Virus record (IMG/VR): IMGVR_UViG_2529292907_000023
Span: 1 to 23,986 of that record
Direction: 5' to 3' (one strand)
DNA: 23,986 nucleotides
Source: a virus
Lineage: Duplodnaviria > Heunggongvirae > Uroviricota > Caudoviricetes
The translations under genes were made by a program, and so were the position numbers. How positions within the stretch are numbered: the stretch's first letter is position 1; every line of letters begins with the position of its first letter. The notes below the pieces were generated by a model. The model made no database searches and had not been told where the DNA came from. It worked only from the letters and a program-made list of their open reading frames with translations. Shown in pieces: positions 1-14,748 of the stretch.

Positions 1-1536
1 ATGGAAACCTGTTTTAAGATCCTTCAGCTCAAGTTCGACAAGAAGCTGACTAACCGTTGTATCGGACTGACGTTACACATCAGCGCCTCAACCGTTTTTG
101 AGGTTCTTGCCCGCTTCAAAGCCTCTTCTCTGTCATGGCCATTACCTGCTGATATATCCCATGACACGCTGGAGAAACTCATTTTTCCGCCCAAAGACAC
201 CTTTGCATCAGAGCTTGTAATGCCTGACATGTTGTACTTCGATACGGAAATGAGAAAACCAGGTGTGACGCGGCAACTGTTGTGGATGGAATACAAGGCA
301 CAGGCGGGTGACAAAGCGATGGGATACTCGCACTTCTGCCGTTGCTACCGGGAGTGGAAAAAAACGCGACGTCTCTCCATGCGCCAGGAGCATCGTGCCG
401 GCGAAAAGCTTTTTATCGACTTCTGTGGTCCTACGGTTCCTGTTATTAATCCGGACACCGGTGAGATACGCCGCGTGGCAATCTTCGTGGCCGTAATGGG
501 GGCGTCCAACTATACCTACGTTGAAGCGTGCGAAGGTCAGGACATGATGTCATGGTTAAATGCCCACAGCCGTTGCCTGACCTTCCTGGGCGGCGTACCG
601 AAGCTGCTCATCCCCGATAACCTCAGAAGCGCAGTGAAAAAGGCCGATCGCTATGAGCCTGTCATCAACGACAGTTATCAGGCACTGGCTGAGCACTATG
701 GCACGGTTATCATCCCGGCCCGACCACGCAAACCTAAAGATAAACCAAAAGCAGAAAACGGCGTCCTCATCGTCGAACGATGGCTTCTTGCCCGCATCCG
801 TAATGAAACCTTCCACACGCTCAGGGCGCTGAATGCGCGCCTTAGGGAGTTACTGACAGACATGAATAACCGGCCAATGAAGGGGTACGGCAATCAAACC
901 CGTGCAGAACGCTTCCGCATACTGGATGCGCCAGCACTCTCTCCGCTGCCTCTGGCACCTTATGAATACACGGAATACAAAGCTGTGAAGGTTGGCCCTG
1001 ACTACCACGTTGAATATGCCCGTCACTGGTACTCCGTTCCACACGAACTGGTCGGTCAGCGTCTGTCACTGAAGGCGGGGCAGTCGGTGGTACAGCTCTG
1101 GCACAAGGGGCAGTGTGTGGCGCAACATCCGCGCAGCACACATGAATATAAACACACAACCAATCCGCTTCACATGCCAGAGCGCCACCGGCAGCACGGG
1201 ACATGGACACCGGAACGCCTGATCGAGCAGGGAAAACGTACGGGCCCGTCCACAGGCCGGGTGGTTGAATCCATGCTGAAGGCAAAACCCCATCCGGAAC
1301 TGGCTTATCGTGCAGTTCTGGGGCTGCTGGCACTTCAGAAAAAATACGGCCCGGAACGGCTGGAAAAGGCCTGTTACGTTGCCCTGCACTATAACGCCCC
1401 TGACAGACGCTTTATCGACAATCTGCTGCGTCACCATCGGGAGAACCTGGAGCTTCCATTATCCCGCCAGGGCGAACAACATCCGGCATATGCTTCAGAG
1501 CATGAAAACCTGCGTGGTCCGGGCTACTACCACTGA
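1..1536 (+). CDS. istA: IS21-family transposase IstA (possibly N-terminally truncated by the window edge)
   Basis: 511-aa ORF starting at window position 1; central DDE-type region (DFCGP...D...E) and the C-terminal region typical of IstA; immediately followed by istB. Confidence 0.85.
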   Translation: METCFKILQLKFDKKLTNRCIGLTLHISASTVFEVLARFKASSLSWPLPADISHDTLEKLIFPPKDTFASELVMPDMLYFDTEMRKPGVTRQLLWMEYKAQAGDKAMGYSHFCRCYREWKKTRRLSMRQEHRAGEKLFIDFCGPTVPVINPDTGEIRRVAIFVAVMGASNYTYVEACEGQDMMSWLNAHSRCLTFLGGVPKLLIPDNLRSAVKKADRYEPVINDSYQALAEHYGTVIIPARPRKPKDKPKAENGVLIVERWLLARIRNETFHTLRALNARLRELLTDMNNRPMKGYGNQTRAERFRILDAPALSPLPLAPYEYTEYKAVKVGPDYHVEYARHWYSVPHELVGQRLSLKAGQSVVQLWHKGQCVAQHPRSTHEYKHTTNPLHMPERHRQHGTWTPERLIEQGKRTGPSTGRVVESMLKAKPHPELAYRAVLGLLALQKKYGPERLEKACYVALHYNAPDRRFIDNLLRHHRENLELPLSRQGEQHPAYASEHENLRGPGYYH

Positions 1537-1552
1537 CAGAAGGAACAACAGT

Positions 1553-2308
1553 ATGAGTGATAACCTGTTAAACAAACTGACCCAACTGAAACTCCCGGCG
1601 ATGGCCGGGAGCCTGATACGGCAGCGGGAAACGCCTCAGACCTACGACGAACTGTCGTTCGAGGAAAGGCTGACGCTGCTGGTTGATGACGAGCTTCTGA
1701 GCAGGGAAAACAGCCGTGTGGCACGGTTGAGAAAAAATGCCGGCCTGAAATACCAGGCAACACCGGAAGGGCTGCGCTATCCGGCCTCAAGAGGTCTGCG
1801 GGCTGAACAGATGAGAGAACTGCTGAACGGCCACTACATAACCCACAGGAAAAACCTGCTGATAACCGGTCCGACAGGATGTGGCAAGAGCTGGATAGCC
1901 AATGCACTGGGCGAACAGGCATGTCGACAGAAACACAGCGTCCGGTACTGTAGAACCGGGCGATTACTGGAACAACTGGCTCAGGGACGTGTTGATGGCA
2001 GCTGGCTGAAATATCTGAAACAGTTGCAAAAAATACAGGTTCTAATCCTGGACGATCTGGGGCTGGAACAGTTAAGTAACGCCCAGTGTAATGACCTTCT
2101 GGAGCTCATAGAGGATCGTTACGGACAAAGCAGCACGATAGTGGTAAGTCAGTTCCCGGTAGATAAATGGCATGGTCTGATGGAGAACCCAACAACAGCA
2201 GATGCCATCCTGGACAGACTGGTACATAACTCACACCGGGTGGTCCTTCAGGGAGAGTCACTGAGGAAAAATCCCCCGGTAGTGGAAAGCAGCGAAAAAA
2301 CGCGTTAA
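1553..2308 (+). CDS. istB: IS21-family ATP-binding helper IstB
   Basis: 251 aa from ATG at 1553 preceded by AAGGAAC RBS; Walker A GPTGCGKSW and Walker B LILDDLG; DnaC-like AAA+ fold typical of IstB. Confidence 0.9.
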   Translation: MSDNLLNKLTQLKLPAMAGSLIRQRETPQTYDELSFEERLTLLVDDELLSRENSRVARLRKNAGLKYQATPEGLRYPASRGLRAEQMRELLNGHYITHRKNLLITGPTGCGKSWIANALGEQACRQKHSVRYCRTGRLLEQLAQGRVDGSWLKYLKQLQKIQVLILDDLGLEQLSNAQCNDLLELIEDRYGQSSTIVVSQFPVDKWHGLMENPTTADAILDRLVHNSHRVVLQGESLRKNPPVVESSEKTR

Positions 2309-2329
2309 AAAGCGGTAGAAAAAGTTAAG

Positions 2330-2420
2330 TTCCCGGTTGATCGAATGGATGCGAATCGCTGATCGGACTTCGATGCCAATCCGTGATCGAATAGAGCGGA
2401 ATACGCAATCAGAGTGCCTC
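2330..2420 (+). repeat. Sub-terminal direct repeats of the IS21-family element (putative IstA binding sites)
   Basis: TGATCGAATGGA (2338-2349), TGATCGGACTTCGA (2360-2373) and TGATCGAATAGAG (2384-2396) within 60 bp downstream of istB. Confidence 0.5.
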
Positions 2421-2672
2421 TTACTCCTCCCACAAGAACACGATGCAGTAAAATCCATTCAGGCTGAGCCGTATGGACATCTCACACCTGTGACTCTCGG
2501 CATTATCGCCAGAGCATTAACACAGCCCATGCTTATGCGTATTAAGACCAATATAAATAACTGGTTGAATGAAGAATTAAGCTACCTTGATTGTGAGTGG
2601 GACAATCATTACGCAAAAACACAAAAAGAACGCATCTTCAGTCGATTATCCAGCAACAGATAACGAGCCACC

Positions 2673-3479
2673 TTATATACGCCCTTTCAGATAAGTCATC
2701 CCCGGCTGCATCCAGTCAACAGGTGCTTTCTTAAAGGGCGTATTATCAAAATCACGCAGAAGAGCCTCCAGCACAACTGCATCATTGTCAGCACCACTGG
2801 CCATCATTTCAATCTCAGCTGCTACCTGCAGATATCCCATGCAACGACCAATGCGCTTCATCAGCCCCTGCTTTTTATTGTTCTTCAGGTAATCAATGGC
2901 AAATTCAATGAGCGCCTCACTATGCTGGTGCGATGGCGGTGTTAATTTCCCATTTTCTGAGATGGTTATTTTCCCGCCATCTCCGTATACAACAAAGGAT
3001 GGCCGGTTACACTCCCATTCCTGATCTTTATCAGGTGCAGACGCAATAAAATAACGTTTATTTCCTTCCTCTCCGGCACTTTTAACCGTAATGGAGTACT
3101 CAGACTGCAGACAAGACGCCTCTTTTTCTGACCGCAGTGTTGACGGCGGCATCTTCAGAGAACCAGTAATTCTTCCCGGTAGCTTTCCTTTGTAGGTTAT
3201 CAACACATCCTGCGCCTCTAAAATTATGGGGCGCTTTTCCGGCAACGGTTCGTTCCCTTCACATAACCCGGCAGCAACATCCATGAAAAACTGCTTCGCC
3301 TGCTTTTTCGCCTCAGCTTCGTAAAACTCCAGCGTGGCACCTTCAGTACGGTCAAGACTAATCGCCACATTTGGCAACAACAGTGACGGATACCCACCAA
3401 TTTCCAGTACCACAGTAACAGTAATCTTATCCGGGTAATTATTTATCCCTTTAACAACCAGTTCGTATTTTTTCTTCAT
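2673..3479 (-). CDS. Hypothetical protein, 268 aa, in the endolysin position of the lysis cassette; function unknown
   Basis: ATG at 3479 lies 4 nt after the pinholin stop; its SD (GGGGAGAG) is formed by the last codons of the pinholin gene. No N-terminal hydrophobic SAR segment and no lysozyme or transglycosylase motif that I can recognise. About 45% GC. Confidence 0.7.
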   Translation of the reverse strand: MKKKYELVVKGINNYPDKITVTVVLEIGGYPSLLLPNVAISLDRTEGATLEFYEAEAKKQAKQFFMDVAAGLCEGNEPLPEKRPIILEAQDVLITYKGKLPGRITGSLKMPPSTLRSEKEASCLQSEYSITVKSAGEEGNKRYFIASAPDKDQEWECNRPSFVVYGDGGKITISENGKLTPPSHQHSEALIEFAIDYLKNNKKQGLMKRIGRCMGYLQVAAEIEMMASGADNDAVVLEALLRDFDNTPFKKAPVDWMQPGMTYLKGRI

Positions 3480-3483
3480 CGCT

Positions 3484-3699
3484 TTACTCTCCCCGCGCCG
3501 CCTTACGCCGGTCCTCTCTGATTTTGAAATACAGGTTAGTCAGATATGTCAGCAGCCCAAACAGCAGACTCCCCAGCACGCCTATTGCCGCCCACTGAGA
3601 CGGGGAAACCCTGTCCAGCAACTGCAGGAACCAGTAGCCCGTTCCCACCGCTGACGTGGTGTATGACACACCTGTTGTGATTTTTTCCATCTGGTACAT
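3484..3699 (-). CDS. S: Class II holin (pinholin), phage 21 S21-type, dual-start MYQM
   Basis: Protein [71 protein letters not shown] closely matches my recollection of S21 (…[46 protein letters not shown]); GGGAGA RBS upstream of ATG 3699; the longer ORF to 3777 would run through an upstream terminator hairpin. Confidence 0.85.
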
Positions 3700-3732
3700 A
3701 CCCCGTCTCCCGTTATCCGGAAGCTGACAACA

Positions 3733-3765
3733 ATAAAAAAAGCCACCAGTTAAGTACTGATGGCT
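3733..3765 (-). terminator. Intrinsic terminator-like hairpin between nanS-p and the pinholin gene
   Basis: Imperfect 10-bp stem (AGCCACCAGT / ACTGATGGCT), 5-nt loop, followed on the minus strand by TTTTTTTATT. Confidence 0.5.
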
Positions 3766-3849
3766 CTGATAACTCATGCAGGCATCTCAGACGACCCACT
3801 GACACTACCGGTGAGTTTAACGATACCTTCCATTTGACTGGCTCACTTT

Positions 3850-5703
3850 TTATGATGATGCCGGTGCATTTATCTCCAGCACCAGACTTTCTATCTCAAC
3901 GCCATACGCTGCATTTTTGGTAATATCCGTCAGCGTCAGTGCATTCAGTCCCACTGTCAGACTGTCTTTTATGACCTGGAATGCCGGGCCAGCCACTCCA
4001 TTCAGTTTCGGAGTAACCGTGGCACTGCCGGCGGTGAACACCAGCTCCAGCGTCTGCCAGTCGTTACTGTAATTCCCGAACTCGCCCAACTTTGTGTTTC
4101 CGGCTTTCTTGTGATGCATCAGATTCAGTTTGCCGTCTGTGGTCTGGGTGAAGAACGACATCAGGAACGGGTTACCAGTCCCGGTCATCGCCACGACGTC
4201 AGGTAACGCTACATCGGTATACAGATAAATTCCCAGACCGAACTGATTGTTGGTCAGTGCGCCTGACAGTCGAAACTTACAGCTCAGTCTGCCACCCCGT
4301 GTCAGCAGGGAGACTGCGTCATCCACCGGGCGCGTCAGGGACCAGGCTTTATTGCTCTGCTTGGTGATCTTAAATACACCATCTGACAACTGAATTCCGC
4401 CATTCTTAATGCTCCAGCCCTGCGCAGCAGCATCTCCGGCTGTCGGCAACAGGGAGATTGTGCGTACGGATGCATCTTCAGACGGCCCCGATGGCGTGTC
4501 GACGCCGGGCGAGGGTTTGATTTCCGGTGCCTTACCACTGATGAAGGCTGAGGTGCGCCCGGCTGCGTTCAGAATAGCGGTTGCCATACGATCCGGAATA
4601 ATGCTCCTGCGCGCCCATGAACTGAAATGTGTCGGGCGGTTTGATGATACCTGGTTTCCATTCGTTCTCGATGCCGCACCGTAATATCCTGATGCCGGAA
4701 TATCCGGATCTTCTGCCGGTGCGTTAGTGGCGGTATTGACGCCGTTACCGTCTGTCATGAAGGGCACAAAATAAACGCCCTCACTCTCCCTGTTTTTATA
4801 CCCTCCGTACACGGTGTCGTACTGGGTAGCGTATGTATTTTTCCAGTAATACGTCGTGTCACCACAAATCCACGGTACAACTGCAGCACTGCCGCCATGG
4901 CACTGCGCGTTAAATCCGGAAAGGTCAGTACGGAACTGCTTCAGCATGGCCGTGAACAGGTCCGGTTGCTGTGCGTAGGTGGCAGCGCTCATGTCAAATT
5001 CGCCCTGCATCCAGCACACCGCCAGCAACACATTTTTCGGGTTCTTCTGTAATGCAGCTTTAGTGCGCGCAATCAGGTCCTGATATAGCGGTTTACCCAC
5101 ACCCCAGCGTGCCGAATCCTGGCTGGCCCCCGCGTCCGCACTGAATGTCCCCTCCGCGCCCTGGGTGAATGCCGAACCACCACGACAGCATGGTACCAGC
5201 AGGATCCCCGCGTTATTCGGGATATACGGGAGCAGTTTTTTGGCAATATGTAAGCCCTGGCCGACACAGCCGTACTGCCCTTTGCTCAGGTCTGCCTTCG
5301 GATGATTCAGCGTACTCATATCCTGCACATCATGCAGACAGTGGTCAGCCGGGATGATGTCGTTATACGTACAACTCTCTCCACCCGGAGTTACCGTGCT
5401 GCGGCGCGCCAGCTGTTTAATGCGCGGATCCGGAGCATCGTAAGAATCCGGTAACGGAAGCCCTTCACCGTAGGCCATGCCGTTGGACTGTCCGGCAAGC
5501 ACAACCACGTAGAACCAGTCCGGCTCAGATGAAGGGCCGACCTGTGGATCTCCTTCAATAGCCACCGCCTGCATCAGTGTGTACGGCGTAATGGCAACCG
5601 GTCCGCCATATGGCTGCCAGCCCTCTTTCAGTTTGTGTGTCAGCTTTTCCGCAAGGTCTGACGGCGACGCCGCCCTGACAACATCATAGTGTTTAAATGC
5701 CAT
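3850..5703 (-). CDS. nanS-p: Prophage sialate 9-O-acetylesterase NanS-p (DUF1737 N-terminal domain plus SASA/SGNH esterase domain)
   Basis: 617 aa; N-terminus MAFKHYDVVRAASPSDLAEKLTHKLKEGWQPYG (DUF1737-like) followed by the GQSN esterase motif (VVLAGQSNGMAYG); strong RBS GGGAGGA; sits downstream of the tRNA cluster as in Stx and other lambdoid prophages of E. coli. Confidence 0.8.
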   Translation of the reverse strand: MAFKHYDVVRAASPSDLAEKLTHKLKEGWQPYGGPVAITPYTLMQAVAIEGDPQVGPSSEPDWFYVVVLAGQSNGMAYGEGLPLPDSYDAPDPRIKQLARRSTVTPGGESCTYNDIIPADHCLHDVQDMSTLNHPKADLSKGQYGCVGQGLHIAKKLLPYIPNNAGILLVPCCRGGSAFTQGAEGTFSADAGASQDSARWGVGKPLYQDLIARTKAALQKNPKNVLLAVCWMQGEFDMSAATYAQQPDLFTAMLKQFRTDLSGFNAQCHGGSAAVVPWICGDTTYYWKNTYATQYDTVYGGYKNRESEGVYFVPFMTDGNGVNTATNAPAEDPDIPASGYYGAASRTNGNQVSSNRPTHFSSWARRSIIPDRMATAILNAAGRTSAFISGKAPEIKPSPGVDTPSGPSEDASVRTISLLPTAGDAAAQGWSIKNGGIQLSDGVFKITKQSNKAWSLTRPVDDAVSLLTRGGRLSCKFRLSGALTNNQFGLGIYLYTDVALPDVVAMTGTGNPFLMSFFTQTTDGKLNLMHHKKAGNTKLGEFGNYSNDWQTLELVFTAGSATVTPKLNGVAGPAFQVIKDSLTVGLNALTLTDITKNAAYGVEIESLVLEINAPASS

Positions 5704-5897
5704 GAATCCTCCCGGCCGGGATAATATTGTGAGTAAAATGAGGAGCGGGCTGAAGTCCGGAAGTTACAGGACAATGGCAGAAGAGAGACAATAGCCCGCA
5801 ATACGAAAAAGGCCGCGCTATTGCGCAGAGTGATTACTGTCGGATATTATTCGCCAGCTGAAATATTACTTCACGTTTTGTTGTTTATTCCTTGCCG

Positions 5898-5925
5898 CCC
5901 GCGTCTCCCTGCGCGGGATTTTTTT
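5898..5925 (+). terminator. Plus-strand intrinsic terminator (6-bp GC stem, T7 tail) in the tRNA/nanS-p intergenic region
   Basis: CCCGCG-tctccctg-CGCGGG followed by ATTTTTTT on the plus strand. Confidence 0.5.
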
Positions 5926-5931
5926 GTCCAT

Positions 5932-5955
5932 AAGAAAGCCCCTCCGGAGAGGGGC
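5932..5955 (-). terminator. Minus-strand intrinsic terminator-like hairpin (7-bp stem, tetraloop)
   Basis: GCCCCTC-cgga-GAGGGGC; on the minus strand it is followed by TTTCTTAT. Abuts the plus-strand terminator, forming a convergent pair. Confidence 0.45.
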
Positions 5956-6151
5956 TGGAGAGTGGCGCTATGTGCCATTGCATGGTGCCGGGTGCCTCCC
6001 GGTGAATTCAGTACCAGCACCTGAATCCGCGATTATCCCATATACCTACTCGCTGATTGCCCCTCCGCACAGGGGGATTCACCATGCCAGTTTCTTTTAA
6101 CAAACTCCCCGCAAAACAGACAACTGTCAACCGTCTGAATTGTGAGACATT

Positions 6152-6178
6152 TAAAAAAAGGCCCGCAAAAGCGAGCCA
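6152..6178 (-). terminator. Intrinsic terminator immediately downstream of the tRNA cluster
   Basis: On the minus strand GGCTCG-cttttg-CGGGCC followed by TTTTTTTAA, directly 3' of tRNA-Arg(UCU). Confidence 0.6.
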
Positions 6179-6191
6179 GGGAAAATAAGTG

Positions 6192-6268
6192 TGGCGCGTT
6201 GTACTGGATTCGAACCAGTGACCGATTGCTTAGAAGGCAATTGCTCTGTCCGGCTGAGCTAACAACGC
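6192..6268 (-). tRNA. argO: tRNA-Arg (anticodon UCU)
   Basis: Reverse complement GCGTTGTTAGCTCAGCCGGACAGAGCAATTGCCTTCTAAGCAATCGGTCACTGGTTCGAATCCAGTACAACGCGCCA folds as a cloverleaf (7-bp acceptor, GTTCGAATC T-loop, CCA end); anticodon loop CTTCTAA. Symbol assigned only by positional analogy to phage 933W. Confidence 0.9.
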
Positions 6269-6281
6269 AGGGTACAGATAA

Positions 6282-6358
6282 TGGACCGCCATCGAGGACT
6301 CGAACCCCGCGCAACCAGCTTCGAAGGCTGGCGCTCTATCCTGATGAGCTAATGGCGG
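6282..6358 (-). tRNA. argN: tRNA-Arg (anticodon UCG)
   Basis: Reverse complement CCGCCATTAGCTCATCAGGATAGAGCGCCAGCCTTCGAAGCTGGTTGCGCGGGGTTCGAGTCCTCGATGGCGGTCCA; anticodon stem CCAGC/GCTGG with loop CTTCGAA (U33, anticodon UCG, A37). Symbol by positional analogy only. Confidence 0.85.
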
Positions 6359-6365
6359 TATGTGA

Positions 6366-6441
6366 TGGTGGCCCTTGCTGGATTTGAACCAGCGACCTGG
6401 CGATTATGAGTCGCTCGCTCTCACCACTGAGCTAAAGGGCC
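6366..6441 (-). tRNA. ileZ: tRNA-Ile2-like (anticodon CAU, lysidine type; Met cannot be excluded from sequence alone)
   Basis: Reverse complement GGCCCTTTAGCTCAGTGGTGAGAGCGAGCGACTCATAATCGCCAGGTCGCTGGTTCAAATCCAGCAAGGGCCACCA is very similar to E. coli ileX (tRNA-Ile k2CAU) as I recall it; anticodon loop CTCATAA. Confidence 0.9.
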
Positions 6442-6490
6442 GCGCGCAGAATAATAACGTTACGGAATTAATACTGCAATCTCATCCGTT

Positions 6491-7540
6491 TCAAACGATT
6501 AAATCCTGAACTTCCCTGACTGTCTGCTCAAAACGTCCGGTCTCCAGCTCAACACCAATCGCACGACGCCCCAGTGCCATCGCCGCTTTTACCGTTGAAC
6601 CCGACCCCATGAAAAAATCCGCAACCAGATCACCAGGACGACTACTTGCGCTGATTATCTGCTGCAGCATTTCTGCCGGTTTTTCGCACGGATGTTTCCC
6701 TGGATAGTACTGCACCGGTTTATACGTCCACACATCGGTGTACGGCACCTGCACCGTCACACCGAAATACCGCCGCAAATTTTTATATTCACTCAGCAGT
6801 TCCATATACTGCCGGTTCAGCTCACTGTATGTGCTGACCAGCTGGTGGTGTGGCTTTTCCAGTTCCCCGCGCTGATGTTTCTCTTCTGCCACCCGGGCAA
6901 ACAGCGACTGTAATTTCAGATAATCGCTTTCGTTCGGTAGCTGCCACTGACTGGCACTGAACCAGTGCGGCACCATGTTTTTCTTTCCTGTGGCATCTGC
7001 AATCTGTTTTGCCGTTATCCCCAGGGCAGCGCGCGCATCACGAAAGTAAGCAATCAGCGGGGCCATCACATGCTGTTTCAGTGCCCTGCCCTTCGCCTCA
7101 TACCCGGCATCTTTCGGACGATACGGCCCCTGATAATGTTCCGCGAACAGAATGCGCTCTGTGGCGGGGAAATACGCCCGCAGGCTTTCCTTGTTGCATC
7201 CGTTCCAGCGTCCGGACGGCTTCGCCCAGATAATATGGTTCAGCACACTGAAGCGTTCACGCATCATGATTTCGATATCAGATGCCAGGCGATGACCACA
7301 GAACAGGTAAAGACTTCCGGCAGGTTTCAGCACCCGCCAGAACTGCGCCAGACACTGGTCCAGCCACTTCAGGTAATCATCGTCGCCCTTCCACTGGTTA
7401 TCCCAGCCCTCAGGCTTCACTTTAAAGTACGGCGGGTCCGTGACTATCAGGTCAACAGAATTTTCGGGTAACGACCGGATAAATTCCAGGCAGTCGGCGT
7501 TGATTAACTCACAACTGGATATTTTTACAGTATTAGCCAT
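6491..7540 (-). CDS. Orphan DNA methyltransferase (beta-class N6-adenine or N4-cytosine MTase)
   Basis: 349 aa; motif IV DPPY (LIVTDPPYF) near the N-terminus and AdoMet-binding motif I FFMGSGST near the C-terminus (beta-class order); no adjacent restriction endonuclease candidate. Confidence 0.85.
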   Translation of the reverse strand: MANTVKISSCELINADCLEFIRSLPENSVDLIVTDPPYFKVKPEGWDNQWKGDDDYLKWLDQCLAQFWRVLKPAGSLYLFCGHRLASDIEIMMRERFSVLNHIIWAKPSGRWNGCNKESLRAYFPATERILFAEHYQGPYRPKDAGYEAKGRALKQHVMAPLIAYFRDARAALGITAKQIADATGKKNMVPHWFSASQWQLPNESDYLKLQSLFARVAEEKHQRGELEKPHHQLVSTYSELNRQYMELLSEYKNLRRYFGVTVQVPYTDVWTYKPVQYYPGKHPCEKPAEMLQQIISASSRPGDLVADFFMGSGSTVKAAMALGRRAIGVELETGRFEQTVREVQDLIV

Positions 7541-7676
7541 AGATCAATAAGCACTTCTCTGATAGGCTCATTCTGCTTTTGCGCAAAGCAGTGGGCCTGA
7601 GGTTTGCTTGTGAACCCAACGCATGAGCAGATGGCTGGTGGGTGCCCCTAACACCCACCAGCCGCCCATTTACCAC

Positions 7677-7704
7677 AAATAAAAAAGCCTTCACTGCGGA
7701 AGGC
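7677..7704 (-). terminator. Intrinsic terminator between the small post-tR' ORF and the methyltransferase gene
   Basis: GCCTTC-actgcg-GAAGGC hairpin followed on the minus strand by TTTTTTATTT; overlaps the stop codon of the 65-aa ORF. Confidence 0.65.
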
Positions 7705-7888
7705 GTCTGTAACAACCGAACTGATAGTCTGCCAGACCCGCCATAACCAGCTGGGTCAGTATTAACTGGCAGCGTTCGCGTGAAAGGTAAGTATTCTGCG
7801 CTATCTCCCCGACTGTCGCCGGTTCGGTAACGCTTAATTCATTAAACACTACTCTGGCGGTTTCTGTCATATCCTGCTGTTTCAGCAT
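7691..7888 (-). CDS. Hypothetical small protein (65 aa), possible winged-helix-like; alternative start at 7870
   Basis: ORF MLKQQDMTETARVVFNELSVTEPATVGEIAQNTYLSRERCQLILTQLVMAGLADYQFGCYRRLPQ; weak RBS; sits between two intrinsic terminators downstream of pR'. Confidence 0.4.
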   Translation of the reverse strand: MLKQQDMTETARVVFNELSVTEPATVGEIAQNTYLSRERCQLILTQLVMAGLADYQFGCYRRLPQ

Positions 7889-8010
7889 GTCTTTTTCCCT
7901 TTTTCGGTTAACGTGACACACCAATAACTCTTGTCGAAAAAGCCAGCAAGCTGAAAGACAGGTATTCACCGCCACCAGCACGTTTACTGTACTGGACCGA
8001 TTTCAGCCAT

Positions 8011-8035
8011 AAAAAAACCCGCTCGCGGCGGGTTT
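8011..8035 (-). terminator. tR'-like intrinsic terminator downstream of Q (end of the short late-promoter transcript)
   Basis: On the minus strand AAACCCGC-cgcga-GCGGGTTT followed by TTTTTTT; about 70-95 nt downstream of the Q stop, matching the lambdoid Q / pR' / tR' arrangement. Confidence 0.75.
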
Positions 8036-8103
8036 AAGCTGTGTGGCGAAGTAACCACTCTTAACATACTGACATACTTTTTGCGGACCGCACTAATCAT
8101 TTT
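8036..8103 (-). promoter_or_regulatory. Presumed late promoter pR' with Q-utilisation (qut) region
   Basis: Position only: the segment between the Q stop codon and the tR'-like terminator. I could not assign convincing -35/-10 hexamers by eye. Confidence 0.4.
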
Positions 8104-8484
8104 TTACTTTTTTAGCAGCCAGTCGTCCATCTCCAGTCTTACCCCCAGCACAGACAAACATCCGTCAATAAACCCTTCGGCTATCTGCATCTCAATTCGT
8201 ATTGCTTTTTCGCTTTTCTTTCTCGTCCTGGCTATCTGTCTTTTTGATATTCGCAACAAATAATGAGCAATGAGAAGCGAATACTCCTCAGGTTTTTTCT
8301 GCTTCAGACGAGCAAGACAGTTTTCAATGATAAGTCCGTCATCATCGCAGCAGGCCGGACGTGGTTTAGTGGCAGATGGTAAAAGTCCTTTGAATCCGGC
8401 AGCGATCGGAGAATAGTCCACCCCGGTGTTACCACTTGCAGCCCATGCCCCCCAGCGTTCAAGAACCATCTGAATATCACGCAT
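8104..8484 (-). CDS. Q: Late-gene antitermination protein Q (phage 21/82-type)
   Basis: ATG at 8484 with GGAGA RBS; N-terminus MRDIQMVLERWGAWAA and a CCDDD motif match my recollection of phage 82/21-type Q proteins; followed by a pR'/tR'-like region. The track ORF begins at a TTG at 8499. Confidence 0.8.
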   Translation of the reverse strand: MRDIQMVLERWGAWAASGNTGVDYSPIAAGFKGLLPSATKPRPACCDDDGLIIENCLARLKQKKPEEYSLLIAHYLLRISKRQIARTRKKSEKAIRIEMQIAEGFIDGCLSVLGVRLEMDDWLLKK

Positions 8485-8501
8485 CAACTTTCTCCACAAA
8501 A

Positions 8502-9521
8502 TCAGGACAGCACACCAATCGCCAGCGCGCGATCGATAAAACGAAATATCAGCTCCAGTTGGGAACCATACTTCTCTTCAAATGCCACGGTATCCGCATG
8601 CAGTTCGTCATGGTGTTTTCTGCACAAAGGCAACACAAAAAGGTCATGCGCTTTTGTACCCATTCCACCCTGACCATGACCAATCAGGTGATGAGGATCG
8701 TCGGCTGGCTTACCACAACATGCACACGGCTGCGTCTTAACCCAGCGCGTGTACTTTTCATTAACCCAGCGACGACGTTTTGGGCGTAACATAAAAGACT
8801 CCGGCGACTCCGGATCCACTTTCAGCGCCAGCACCTTTTTCGCCTTATCCTGGATGATGCTGGTGGCAGTAACCGAAGGCACAAGGTCACTTTCCCGGGT
8901 GACAGACGGCACAACAGGCTTCGGTAATCTCAGTGCCTTACGGGCTGCACTTTCCGGTAAGGCATCCGCCAGGTCATTACGAATCAGCCACCAGCACAGT
9001 TCCGGCATTGTCACAACGTGACTGTCATCAAAACCAAGATCACGGCGCACAACAGATAACACCCAGCGGGCACAGTTATCCGTTGCCATTGCTTCCAGCC
9101 GTTCCGTGAACTGGTCACGGAGAAGATTGTCACAGTGCCAGCACAGACGGATTGCACCCGGCGCGTGCCGCATTGTGGTCATGTTCTCGCTGTGCCATCC
9201 GGAATGAGGCCACTGACAGCCCTTTTCACGAAGTAACCAGCTTTCAAGACATTCCACCCCACCAGTACAACGAATAACTGCCTCATTGCGGAACACGGCC
9301 CGAACGGCAGGATCATCCGCCAGCGGTTGTGATGCTGCCGGAACGGCACCGCTGGCGAAAGATGAATAACGTTCCGGCTCAGGCTCCAGCAGGACACGCC
9401 CCTGCATAAACAGGGGCATCAGCTCTGAACCGGGCCTGAACAATACAATCCCCATACGCGGGGCAATTTCAGGGGTCAGCAGTGCTCTCACGGTCACCTC
9501 AGCAAACGATATTGAATGCAT
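8502..9521 (-). CDS. DUF968-family prophage protein (YdfU-like) with a Cys/His-rich HNH-like C-terminal region
   Basis: 339-aa ORF; C-terminal CACCGKPADDPHHLIGHGQGGMGTKAHDLFVLPLCRKHHDELH; located immediately upstream of Q, as ydfU is relative to quuQ in the Qin prophage (from memory). Start codon uncertain (no clear SD at 9521). Confidence 0.55.
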   Translation of the reverse strand: MHSISFAEVTVRALLTPEIAPRMGIVLFRPGSELMPLFMQGRVLLEPEPERYSSFASGAVPAASQPLADDPAVRAVFRNEAVIRCTGGVECLESWLLREKGCQWPHSGWHSENMTTMRHAPGAIRLCWHCDNLLRDQFTERLEAMATDNCARWVLSVVRRDLGFDDSHVVTMPELCWWLIRNDLADALPESAARKALRLPKPVVPSVTRESDLVPSVTATSIIQDKAKKVLALKVDPESPESFMLRPKRRRWVNEKYTRWVKTQPCACCGKPADDPHHLIGHGQGGMGTKAHDLFVLPLCRKHHDELHADTVAFEEKYGSQLELIFRFIDRALAIGVLS

Positions 9522-14364: not shown

Positions 14365-14748
14365 GATGGCAGCCTCCGTTGACAGTGAAAAACTTCCACC
14401 ACCGGAAACGCCAATTTCACTGGTGGTGAACTGGACGGGGTTGGCGTAACCGGCGTCAACGGAGACCGGCGCACCTTTCGGTGCCCCCGCCCAGCCCACC
14501 ATAATCTGGATGTGAGCAAATGCGGACGATAAAAAAGACGCTGACGCGTCATACATCGCCGTTGACAATTTCAGGACGCCAATCCCGGCACCCGCTTTAT
14601 AAGGTGCAGAGACAGTGTAACGTCCCGAAATTGCAGAATCAATATTTGGTCTTGAAATGATCATATAGCTGCTGATATCTTTAGAACTGTTCTTGGATGT
14701 TTCAGAGCCGTTTTATGCGAAACAGCTCCCCGTTATTGATGTTGAGTG

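Follow-up and report, generated by a model that had tools for sequence, protein, structure and literature searches.

What does a lambdoid prophage carry at the place where Shiga toxin-converting phages hold stx, when the late genes around that place are arranged as in those phages and the toxin genes are absent? The locus considered here lies in a window of 23,986 nt, positions 1 to 23,986 of virus record IMGVR_UViG_2529292907_000023. In this window the interval 5704-6191 is the exact gap of 488 nt between a tRNA-Arg gene and the ATG of nanS-p. The original prediction described about 450 bp of it as an empty stx slot, belonging to either a never-converted relative or an stx-loss derivative. 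Two questions follow, namely where exactly stx would sit and whether it ever sat there.

Gene order of the late region

The late genes are all present in the predicted order, that is Q, tR', methylase, tRNAs, NanS-p and an S21-type holin, all on the minus strand. Q (131 aa, 8499..8104; PF06530 Phage_antitermQ, E 1.6e-52) occupies a position at which RefSeq relatives annotate an 'antiterminator Q family protein'. Just 3' of Q and pR', the terminator scan detected a tR'-like intrinsic terminator (8035..8015, in a part spanning 8008..8035) with a stem of 8 bp, AAACCCGC/GCGGGTTT, followed by TTTTTTT, and window 8067..8011 corresponds to the pR'/qut/tR' region of 933W and VT1-Sakai with an 83-84% match. 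Between tR' and the tRNAs lies an N6/N4 DNA methyltransferase gene (7540..6491; PF01555 N6_N4_Mtase, E 1.9e-44), also present at the equivalent location in the Stx2a phage Stx2_14040. A 96-aa ORF separating tR' from the methylase (7691-7981, minus strand) has no Pfam match and is followed by a terminator-like hairpin (7704..7687); RefSeq relatives annotate merely a 65-aa hypothetical protein at this site. ARAGORN and the Rfam tRNA model both found three tRNA genes, an ileZ-type tRNA(CAT) (6441..6366), labelled ileZ/tRNA-Ile in the 933W, Sakai and RefSeq annotations, a tRNA-Arg(TCG) (6358..6282) and a tRNA-Arg(TCT) (6268..6192). This cluster (6192..6441) is equivalent to ileZ-argN-argO of 933W and Sakai Sp4/Sp5. 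It ends at an intrinsic terminator recovered by the same scan on the minus strand (6153..6177; GGCTCGC-TTTT-GCGGGCC + T7), whose homologue in 933W is annotated as 'possible rho-independent terminator upstream of the stx genes'. Beyond the interval come nanS-p (5703..3850), coding for a sialate O-acetylesterase of 617 aa with DUF1737, SASA and DUF6645 domains and homologous to 933W L0105/ST933Wp42 and Sakai ECs_1088, and a P21-type class II holin gene (3777..3484; PF04971 Phage_holin_2_1, E 2.3e-32) in a region 93-95% identical to Stx phages.

Q/tR', the ileZ-argN-argO tRNAs, nanS-p and the holin thus stand in Stx-phage order on one strand. Synteny with Stx phages is borne out by the interval itself, which matches 288 phage records, the majority of them Stx-converting, and blastn alignments to 933W, VT1-Sakai and Stx2_14040 were collinear. 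The description of the interval as holding several hairpins and no credible ORF was also correct, with four terminator-like hairpins within the 488 nt and six ORFs (40 aa or longer) for which Pfam gave no match. Over 5600-8200, eight terminator-like hairpins were counted, against 2.6 +/- 1.9 in shuffled sequences. The folding z-score was -2.4.

Downstream of the holin gene, a DUF1327 (YdfR-family) ORF (2673-3479, minus strand) of 268 aa has its Pfam domain in the first 100 residues only; the counterpart in genome 09-02E is annotated as a truncated pseudogene, and the C-terminal 170 residues in the window are without explanation. Just past these two genes, where relatives carry endolysin and Rz, an IS21-family element fills window 1-2406. 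Its plus-strand ORFs (1..1536 and 1310..2308) comprise an IstA-type transposase with rve and Mu-transposase C-terminal domains, incomplete because the window begins within it, and an IstB ATPase (PF01695, 2.4e-60). Related prophages align only from 2407 or 3152 onwards. An interrupted lysis cassette is probable, and the prophage may therefore be defective. Elsewhere in the window, two minus-strand Rfam matches above their gathering scores adjoin each other, C4 antisense RNA (RF01695, 81 bits, 14506..14419) and isrK (RF01394, 62 bits, 14607..14531). The site 14419-14607 adjoins Rha/ash-type genes in relatives, and resembles a P1/P7-like module of the c4 type for the control of immunity or antirepressor, here in a lambdoid prophage.

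The stx insertion joint

The place of stx was located from the flanks of the toxin cassette in two Stx2 phages. In Stx2_14040, blastn aligned window 8600..6154 with locus positions 217..2665 (94.9%) on the left, and 6149..5596 with 4001..4578 on the right. In 933W, the corresponding matches were 6592..6154 with 2970..3409 and 6149..5979 with 4745..4926. Homology to stx2 phages is therefore broken between 6154 and 6149 on the minus strand, and since the breakpoints are the same in both phages, the 1335-bp stx2 cassette (933W locus 3410..4744; Stx2_14040 locus 2666..4000) stands where the window has only about 4 nt (6153..6150). Homology to phiP27 (Stx2e) likewise stops at window 6154. The cassette extends from 53 nt before the stxA2 start codon to 41 nt beyond the stxB2 stop. 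Its left edge is the final T of the tRNA-cluster (argO) terminator and its right edge is the first base of a conserved block, TCACAATTCAG, which starts about 44 nt beyond stx1B in VT1-Sakai and also opens the corresponding region of PhiR5_1, a phage without any tRNAs. The cassette ends bear a short imperfect repeat, ATATCTGCG / TAATCTGTG.

From these breakpoints it follows that the real stx slot is a single joint and that nearly the whole interval is Stx-phage spacer. Calling the interval an empty stx slot was consequently mistaken, since 6149..5704 aligns with the spacer running from stxB to nanS-p in Stx1 and Stx2 phages, and since it is not vacant, holding an STnc100-family sRNA gene and, convergent to it, an antisense RNA that has a terminator of its own. 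Window 6009..5704 finds a 98% match in VT1-Sakai, and an alignment of nine sequences showed the whole spacer to be conserved whether or not the phage carries stx. The phages 933W, Sakai Sp5 and Stx2_14040 share with the window the tRNA cluster, its terminator, the STnc100-family sRNA, the nanS-p leader and the gene order. The difference is that Stx2 phages read tRNAs, stx2AB, EcOnc27(STnc100)/AsxR, nanS-p, with the cassette at the joint, whereas the window has none there. We are thus highly confident that 5704-6191 is the conserved pre-nanS-p spacer of stx-positive and stx-negative phages and not an emptied toxin site and, as part of the same judgement, that the window is the int-to-lysis part of a stx-negative lambdoid E. 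coli prophage, with a late leader modular as in Stx phages.

Several phages share the unoccupied arrangement. In Nil3 (AM051322), PhiR49_2, vB_EcoS-611R1 and the group TL-2011a, phi296 and PPwrbA, tRNA-Arg is joined to the sRNA module without stx, as in the window. The first three are 97-98.6% identical to it at the joint; the latter three differ from it, with about 87% identity and a joint about 29 nt longer. These extra nucleotides (ATTACAGGAAAGACACTGGACAGTGAAATG; phi296, 3936-4010 of its locus) sit between the tRNA terminator and the sRNA module, and empty sites therefore exist as at least two alleles.

Whether stx once occupied the joint is a separate matter. The check for remnants of stxA, stxB and the stx promoter that had been proposed was carried out and none was detectable. 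Indeed, tblastn with Stx1A/B and Stx2A/B over the window and over 5600-6300 returned chance-level hits only, as did blastn over the same two ranges with the 933W cassette, promoter and 3' region included, and with the VT1-Sakai stx1 region. The best tblastn hit in the interval had an E value of at least 0.05 and blastn matches were 17 nt or shorter. Neither stxA nor stxB lies between pR'/tRNAs and nanS-p, and no stx similarity was found anywhere in the window.

The joint of the window is, moreover, a common one. Counting matches to at least 80% of a 141-nt probe spanning the joint, we found it empty in 1020 of 5426 complete E. coli genomes (about a fifth), at up to eight places per genome; among them are 55989, O104:H4, O55:H7 and uropathogenic strains. 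An equivalent probe found the stx2-filled joint in 592 genomes of the same comparison. The genomes closest to the window (09-02E, AREA_504 and 100416) are stx-negative and match at 98-99% over about 80% of it, and all genome matches at that level are non-STEC human isolates with an empty joint, in at least one of which the prophage sits at yecE. The best phage match, PhiR49_2, is also stx-negative (95.3% identity, 60% coverage).

A recent loss of stx at 6150-6153, by deletion or by recombination with a stx-free phage, nevertheless deserves consideration. The backbone is shared with Stx2a, Stx2d, Stx1a and Stx2e (phiP27) phages at 88-93% identity over 40-54% of the window, relatives are found at yecE, a site also occupied by Stx2a phages, 77 nt of tRNA-Arg and terminator are 100% identical to Stx2c phages, and the imperfect direct repeat around the stx2 cassette could mediate a deletion. 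However, no coding, promoter or 3' remnant of stx was found, and an independent deletion would be expected to leave a private junction, whereas the joint observed is the common allele, found again at 99.1% identity in Sakai Sp4. Nor is any stx-positive phage close on both flanks, identity being at most 94.9% on the left and 72-79% to Stx2 phages over the first 140 nt on the right, and none exceeds about 93-95% over long stretches. The empty joint in every one of the closest genomes also argues against recent loss, which we regard as improbable. Finally, each edge of the cassette meets the border of a unit, a terminator ending on one side and the sRNA module starting on the other; moron addition predicts this, and random deletion would rarely produce it. 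Joint frequency, stx-negative relatives, flanks and boundaries together make a long-standing unoccupied site much likelier than recent loss. Of the two origins first proposed, the never-occupied one is thus favoured, and recent loss finds little support given the common joint, the stx-negative relatives and the missing remnant. Most likely, this module boundary was unoccupied from the outset and the joint was not left behind by a deletion, a direction that we read from parsimony and boundary logic. An ancient loss that was also precise, with the short imperfect repeat of the cassette as its possible route, is conceivable in principle.

Two predicted convergent RNAs upstream of nanS-p

The spacer right of the joint has a close and well-studied counterpart. 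Window 6275..5640 is identical to prophage Sp4 of E. coli O157:H7 Sakai at 630 of 636 positions (99.1%), and Sp4 carries ileZ1-argN1-argO1, a 489-nt spacer and a nanS-p paralogue (ECs_1088), without stx. The order tRNA-Arg, terminator, sRNA pair, nanS-p and the unoccupied joint are common to both. Sp4 differs in having an AraC-family gene, not a methylase, upstream of the tRNAs and IS629 downstream, whereas the window has a Q21-type Q and the methylase, and its lysis region contains the IS21-family element. Tree et al. 2014 (PMC4104026) described a moron insertion site 3' of PR' that carries convergent sRNA genes; Sp5 has stx2 there, with EcOnc27 and AsxR 3' of stx2B, and Sp3, 4, 9, 10, 11, 15 and 17 are organised like Sp5. 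Their Table S2 lists three Hfq cross-linking peaks for Sp4. Through the alignment, EcOnc05 (Sakai plus strand, northern about 222 nt) falls on window 6055..5947, minus strand, while EcOnc08 and EcOnc21 (Sakai minus strand, together a northern band of about 271 nt) fall on 5851..5923 and 5760..5845, plus strand. This mapping takes the coordinates of Table S2 and NC_002695.2 to be the same at Sp4. The peaks coincide with the 3' half of an STnc100 match and with an RNA whose 3' edge is at a plus-strand terminator, and this fit of peak edges to both terminators supports, without proving, a zero offset. At Sp5, Table S2 puts AsxR and EcOnc27 about 135 nt below their NC_002695.2 coordinates, and Sp4 is apparently unshifted; reuse of these coordinates calls for re-anchoring by sequence. 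The mapping of EcOnc42 (Sp15) was dropped in favour of Sp4 because the published coordinates are shifted from NC_002695.2 at Sp15 too. The EcOnc13 probe, listed for Sp3, matches exactly the Sp15 / VT1-Sakai copy and not the Sp3 stretch compared, and we used it only to show that the RNA covers the region just 5' of GCATGGTG.

On the late strand, an STnc100-family sRNA gene (5926..6149, minus strand) is identified by a full-length match to RF02076 (6116..5926; model positions 1-206) with 139.2 bits for a gathering score of 47 (E 4.8e-31), and by a conserved fold that ends in a terminator hairpin detected by the terminator scan (5956..5937, minus strand). The gene is a homologue of EcOnc05/13/27 and is related to PasD. 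The consensus fold of seven homologues has 43 pairs, six of them with compensatory change, and retains a long closing stem, three internal hairpins and the terminator. Between the hairpins lies a hypervariable unpaired segment (about 6055..6031), in which the window is of the Sp4/Nil3 type, unlike the variants of 933W, VT1-Sakai and PhiR5_1. The family was found directly 3' of stxB in 933W (208 bits), VT1-Sakai and two further Stx2 phages, and also in three stx-negative phages. Similarly, STnc100/EcOnc27 has been placed about 75 nt downstream of stx2B (PMC12370729, PMC12711010). A discrete RNA associated with Hfq has been reported both for the Sp4 copy (EcOnc05) and for EcOnc27 of Sp5.

The sRNA 5' end is placed near 6150 solely from the northern size of about 222 nt. 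A sigma-70 scan gave no convincing promoter for the STnc100-type RNA. By eye, a TTGACA at about 6131 was considered and set aside, being not conserved in VT1-Sakai, and CACAAT/TTAAAT candidates were weak. Counted back from their terminators, the species of about 222 nt (Sp4) and about 235 nt (Sp5) both start at the module boundary, so that the sRNA 5' end falls on the stx insertion joint to within the accuracy of northern blots. With no promoter found and 5' ends at this boundary, the RNA may arise from a weak promoter across the joint or by processing of read-through transcripts.

The opposite strand would encode a convergent antisense RNA (5732..5924, plus strand), a homologue of EcOnc08/21/42. 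It shows the 99.1% identity to Sp4, lies on the strand opposite to the STnc100-type RNA, and has its own intrinsic terminator (5898-5917 followed by T7, to 5924) facing that of the sRNA. Its 5' end is uncertain, at about 5732 from the sole promoter-like site given by the sigma-70 scan (ATGCCA-17-GATAAT, 5697-5725, plus strand), or at about 5654 from the northern size; the promoter-like site predicts about 193 nt against the band of about 271 nt. The RNA is predicted to be complementary to the nanS-p 5' leader and, by analogy with Sp4, both RNAs would be expressed from the prophage.

AsxR, AgvB and EcOnc03 were rejected as the convergent partner. For AsxR and AgvB (RF02703 / RF02702), no Rfam hit at E <= 10 was obtained in the 257 nt of 5704-5960, none of the three gave a blastn-short match in the interval, and the AsxR/AgvB 3' motif of about 42 nt (GTATCTCATGC..TTGCCCGAACCCA.TCGGGC) was not found on the strand opposite to late transcription. 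Among the phages compared, AsxR was detected in 933W only, at the spot equivalent to the plus-strand RNA, so that the convergent partner is AsxR (RF02703) in 933W and of EcOnc08/21 type in the window. Within the nanS-p leader, the terminator scan also revealed a hairpin that runs into a CCTTTTTCGT tail (5813..5828, minus strand), about 110 nt upstream of the nanS-p start and kept in all nine aligned phages, 933W included. It could be a late-strand leader terminator or a structural element of the antisense RNA. In 933W, AsxR has replaced the sequence neighbouring the homologue of this hairpin.

One could argue that the spacer is passive, a stack of terminators followed by nanS-p leader structure with no RNA gene at all. 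The four terminator-like hairpins in 488 nt, the lack of an identified promoter for the late-strand RNA and that of an established function for STnc100 in published work would all fit such a view. It is nonetheless hard to reconcile with a full-length Rfam match at three times the gathering score, or with conserved helices that carry compensatory changes and flank a hypervariable single-stranded segment. Moreover, Hfq-bound RNAs of about 222 and 271 nt have been reported from the Sp4 locus, and STnc100 RNA has been found in STEC vesicles by RT-qPCR. We therefore consider a passive spacer very improbable, and retain the two RNA genes. Least credible of all is that one of the small ORFs of 40-67 aa on either strand codes for a real protein: PHANOTATE-annotated phages do list three 'hypothetical proteins' in the homologous stretch and RefSeq marks a partial pseudo-CDS there, but Pfam matched none of the six, homologues differ in the hypervariable block and through indels with lengths not divisible by three, no CDS is given there in the curated annotations of Sakai, 933W and VT1-Sakai, and structured RNAs account for the sequence; the protein-coding reading was rejected.

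Probable working of the module and its meaning

The module may be pictured along the late strand as the tRNA-cluster terminator, the unoccupied moron joint (6153..6150), the STnc100-family gene and the convergent antisense RNA. The first RNA would be an Hfq-binding sRNA of about 220 nt ending at its own terminator, and the second, read from the other strand and complementary to the nanS-p 5' leader, would end at the terminator 5898-5924. In Stx phages, the stxAB moron lies exactly between the tRNA terminator and the STnc100-type gene. In lambdoid and 933W-type phages, Q-modified RNA polymerase passes tR' and terminators after induction. Upon induction of this prophage, Q-modified polymerase starting at pR' would likewise pass tR' and the tRNA and sRNA terminators and reach nanS-p and the lysis genes. 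In the lysogen, tR' would halt the transcripts from pR', and both sRNAs as well as the tRNAs would be made independently, as published Hfq cross-linking and northern blots have shown for the Sp4 locus.

We speculate, with little confidence, that the STnc100-type RNA lacks its own promoter and is released by processing of read-through transcripts, the occupant of the moron site setting the sRNA supply. If so, the source of the sRNA would be the tRNA operon in stx-free prophages and the stx / pR' transcript in Stx phages, and a conserved Hfq-binding sRNA would be coupled to toxin transcription in converted phages only.

Altogether, the arrangement is real, ordinary and already described. Rfam and published work cover its RNAs, the sequence is almost that of a well-studied prophage in the reference EHEC strain, and lambdoid prophages that lack stx but have tRNAs and nanS-p in their late region are common. 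A non-coding stretch upstream of nanS-p is not to be taken for a vacated toxin site and says nothing about past carriage of stx; it is the joint after the argO terminator that is informative. For surveillance and annotation, the 141-nt joint sequence separates unoccupied sites from those occupied by stx2. Since stx-free lambdoid prophages carry the convergent pair too, any regulatory role of the two sRNAs would not be tied to the toxin.
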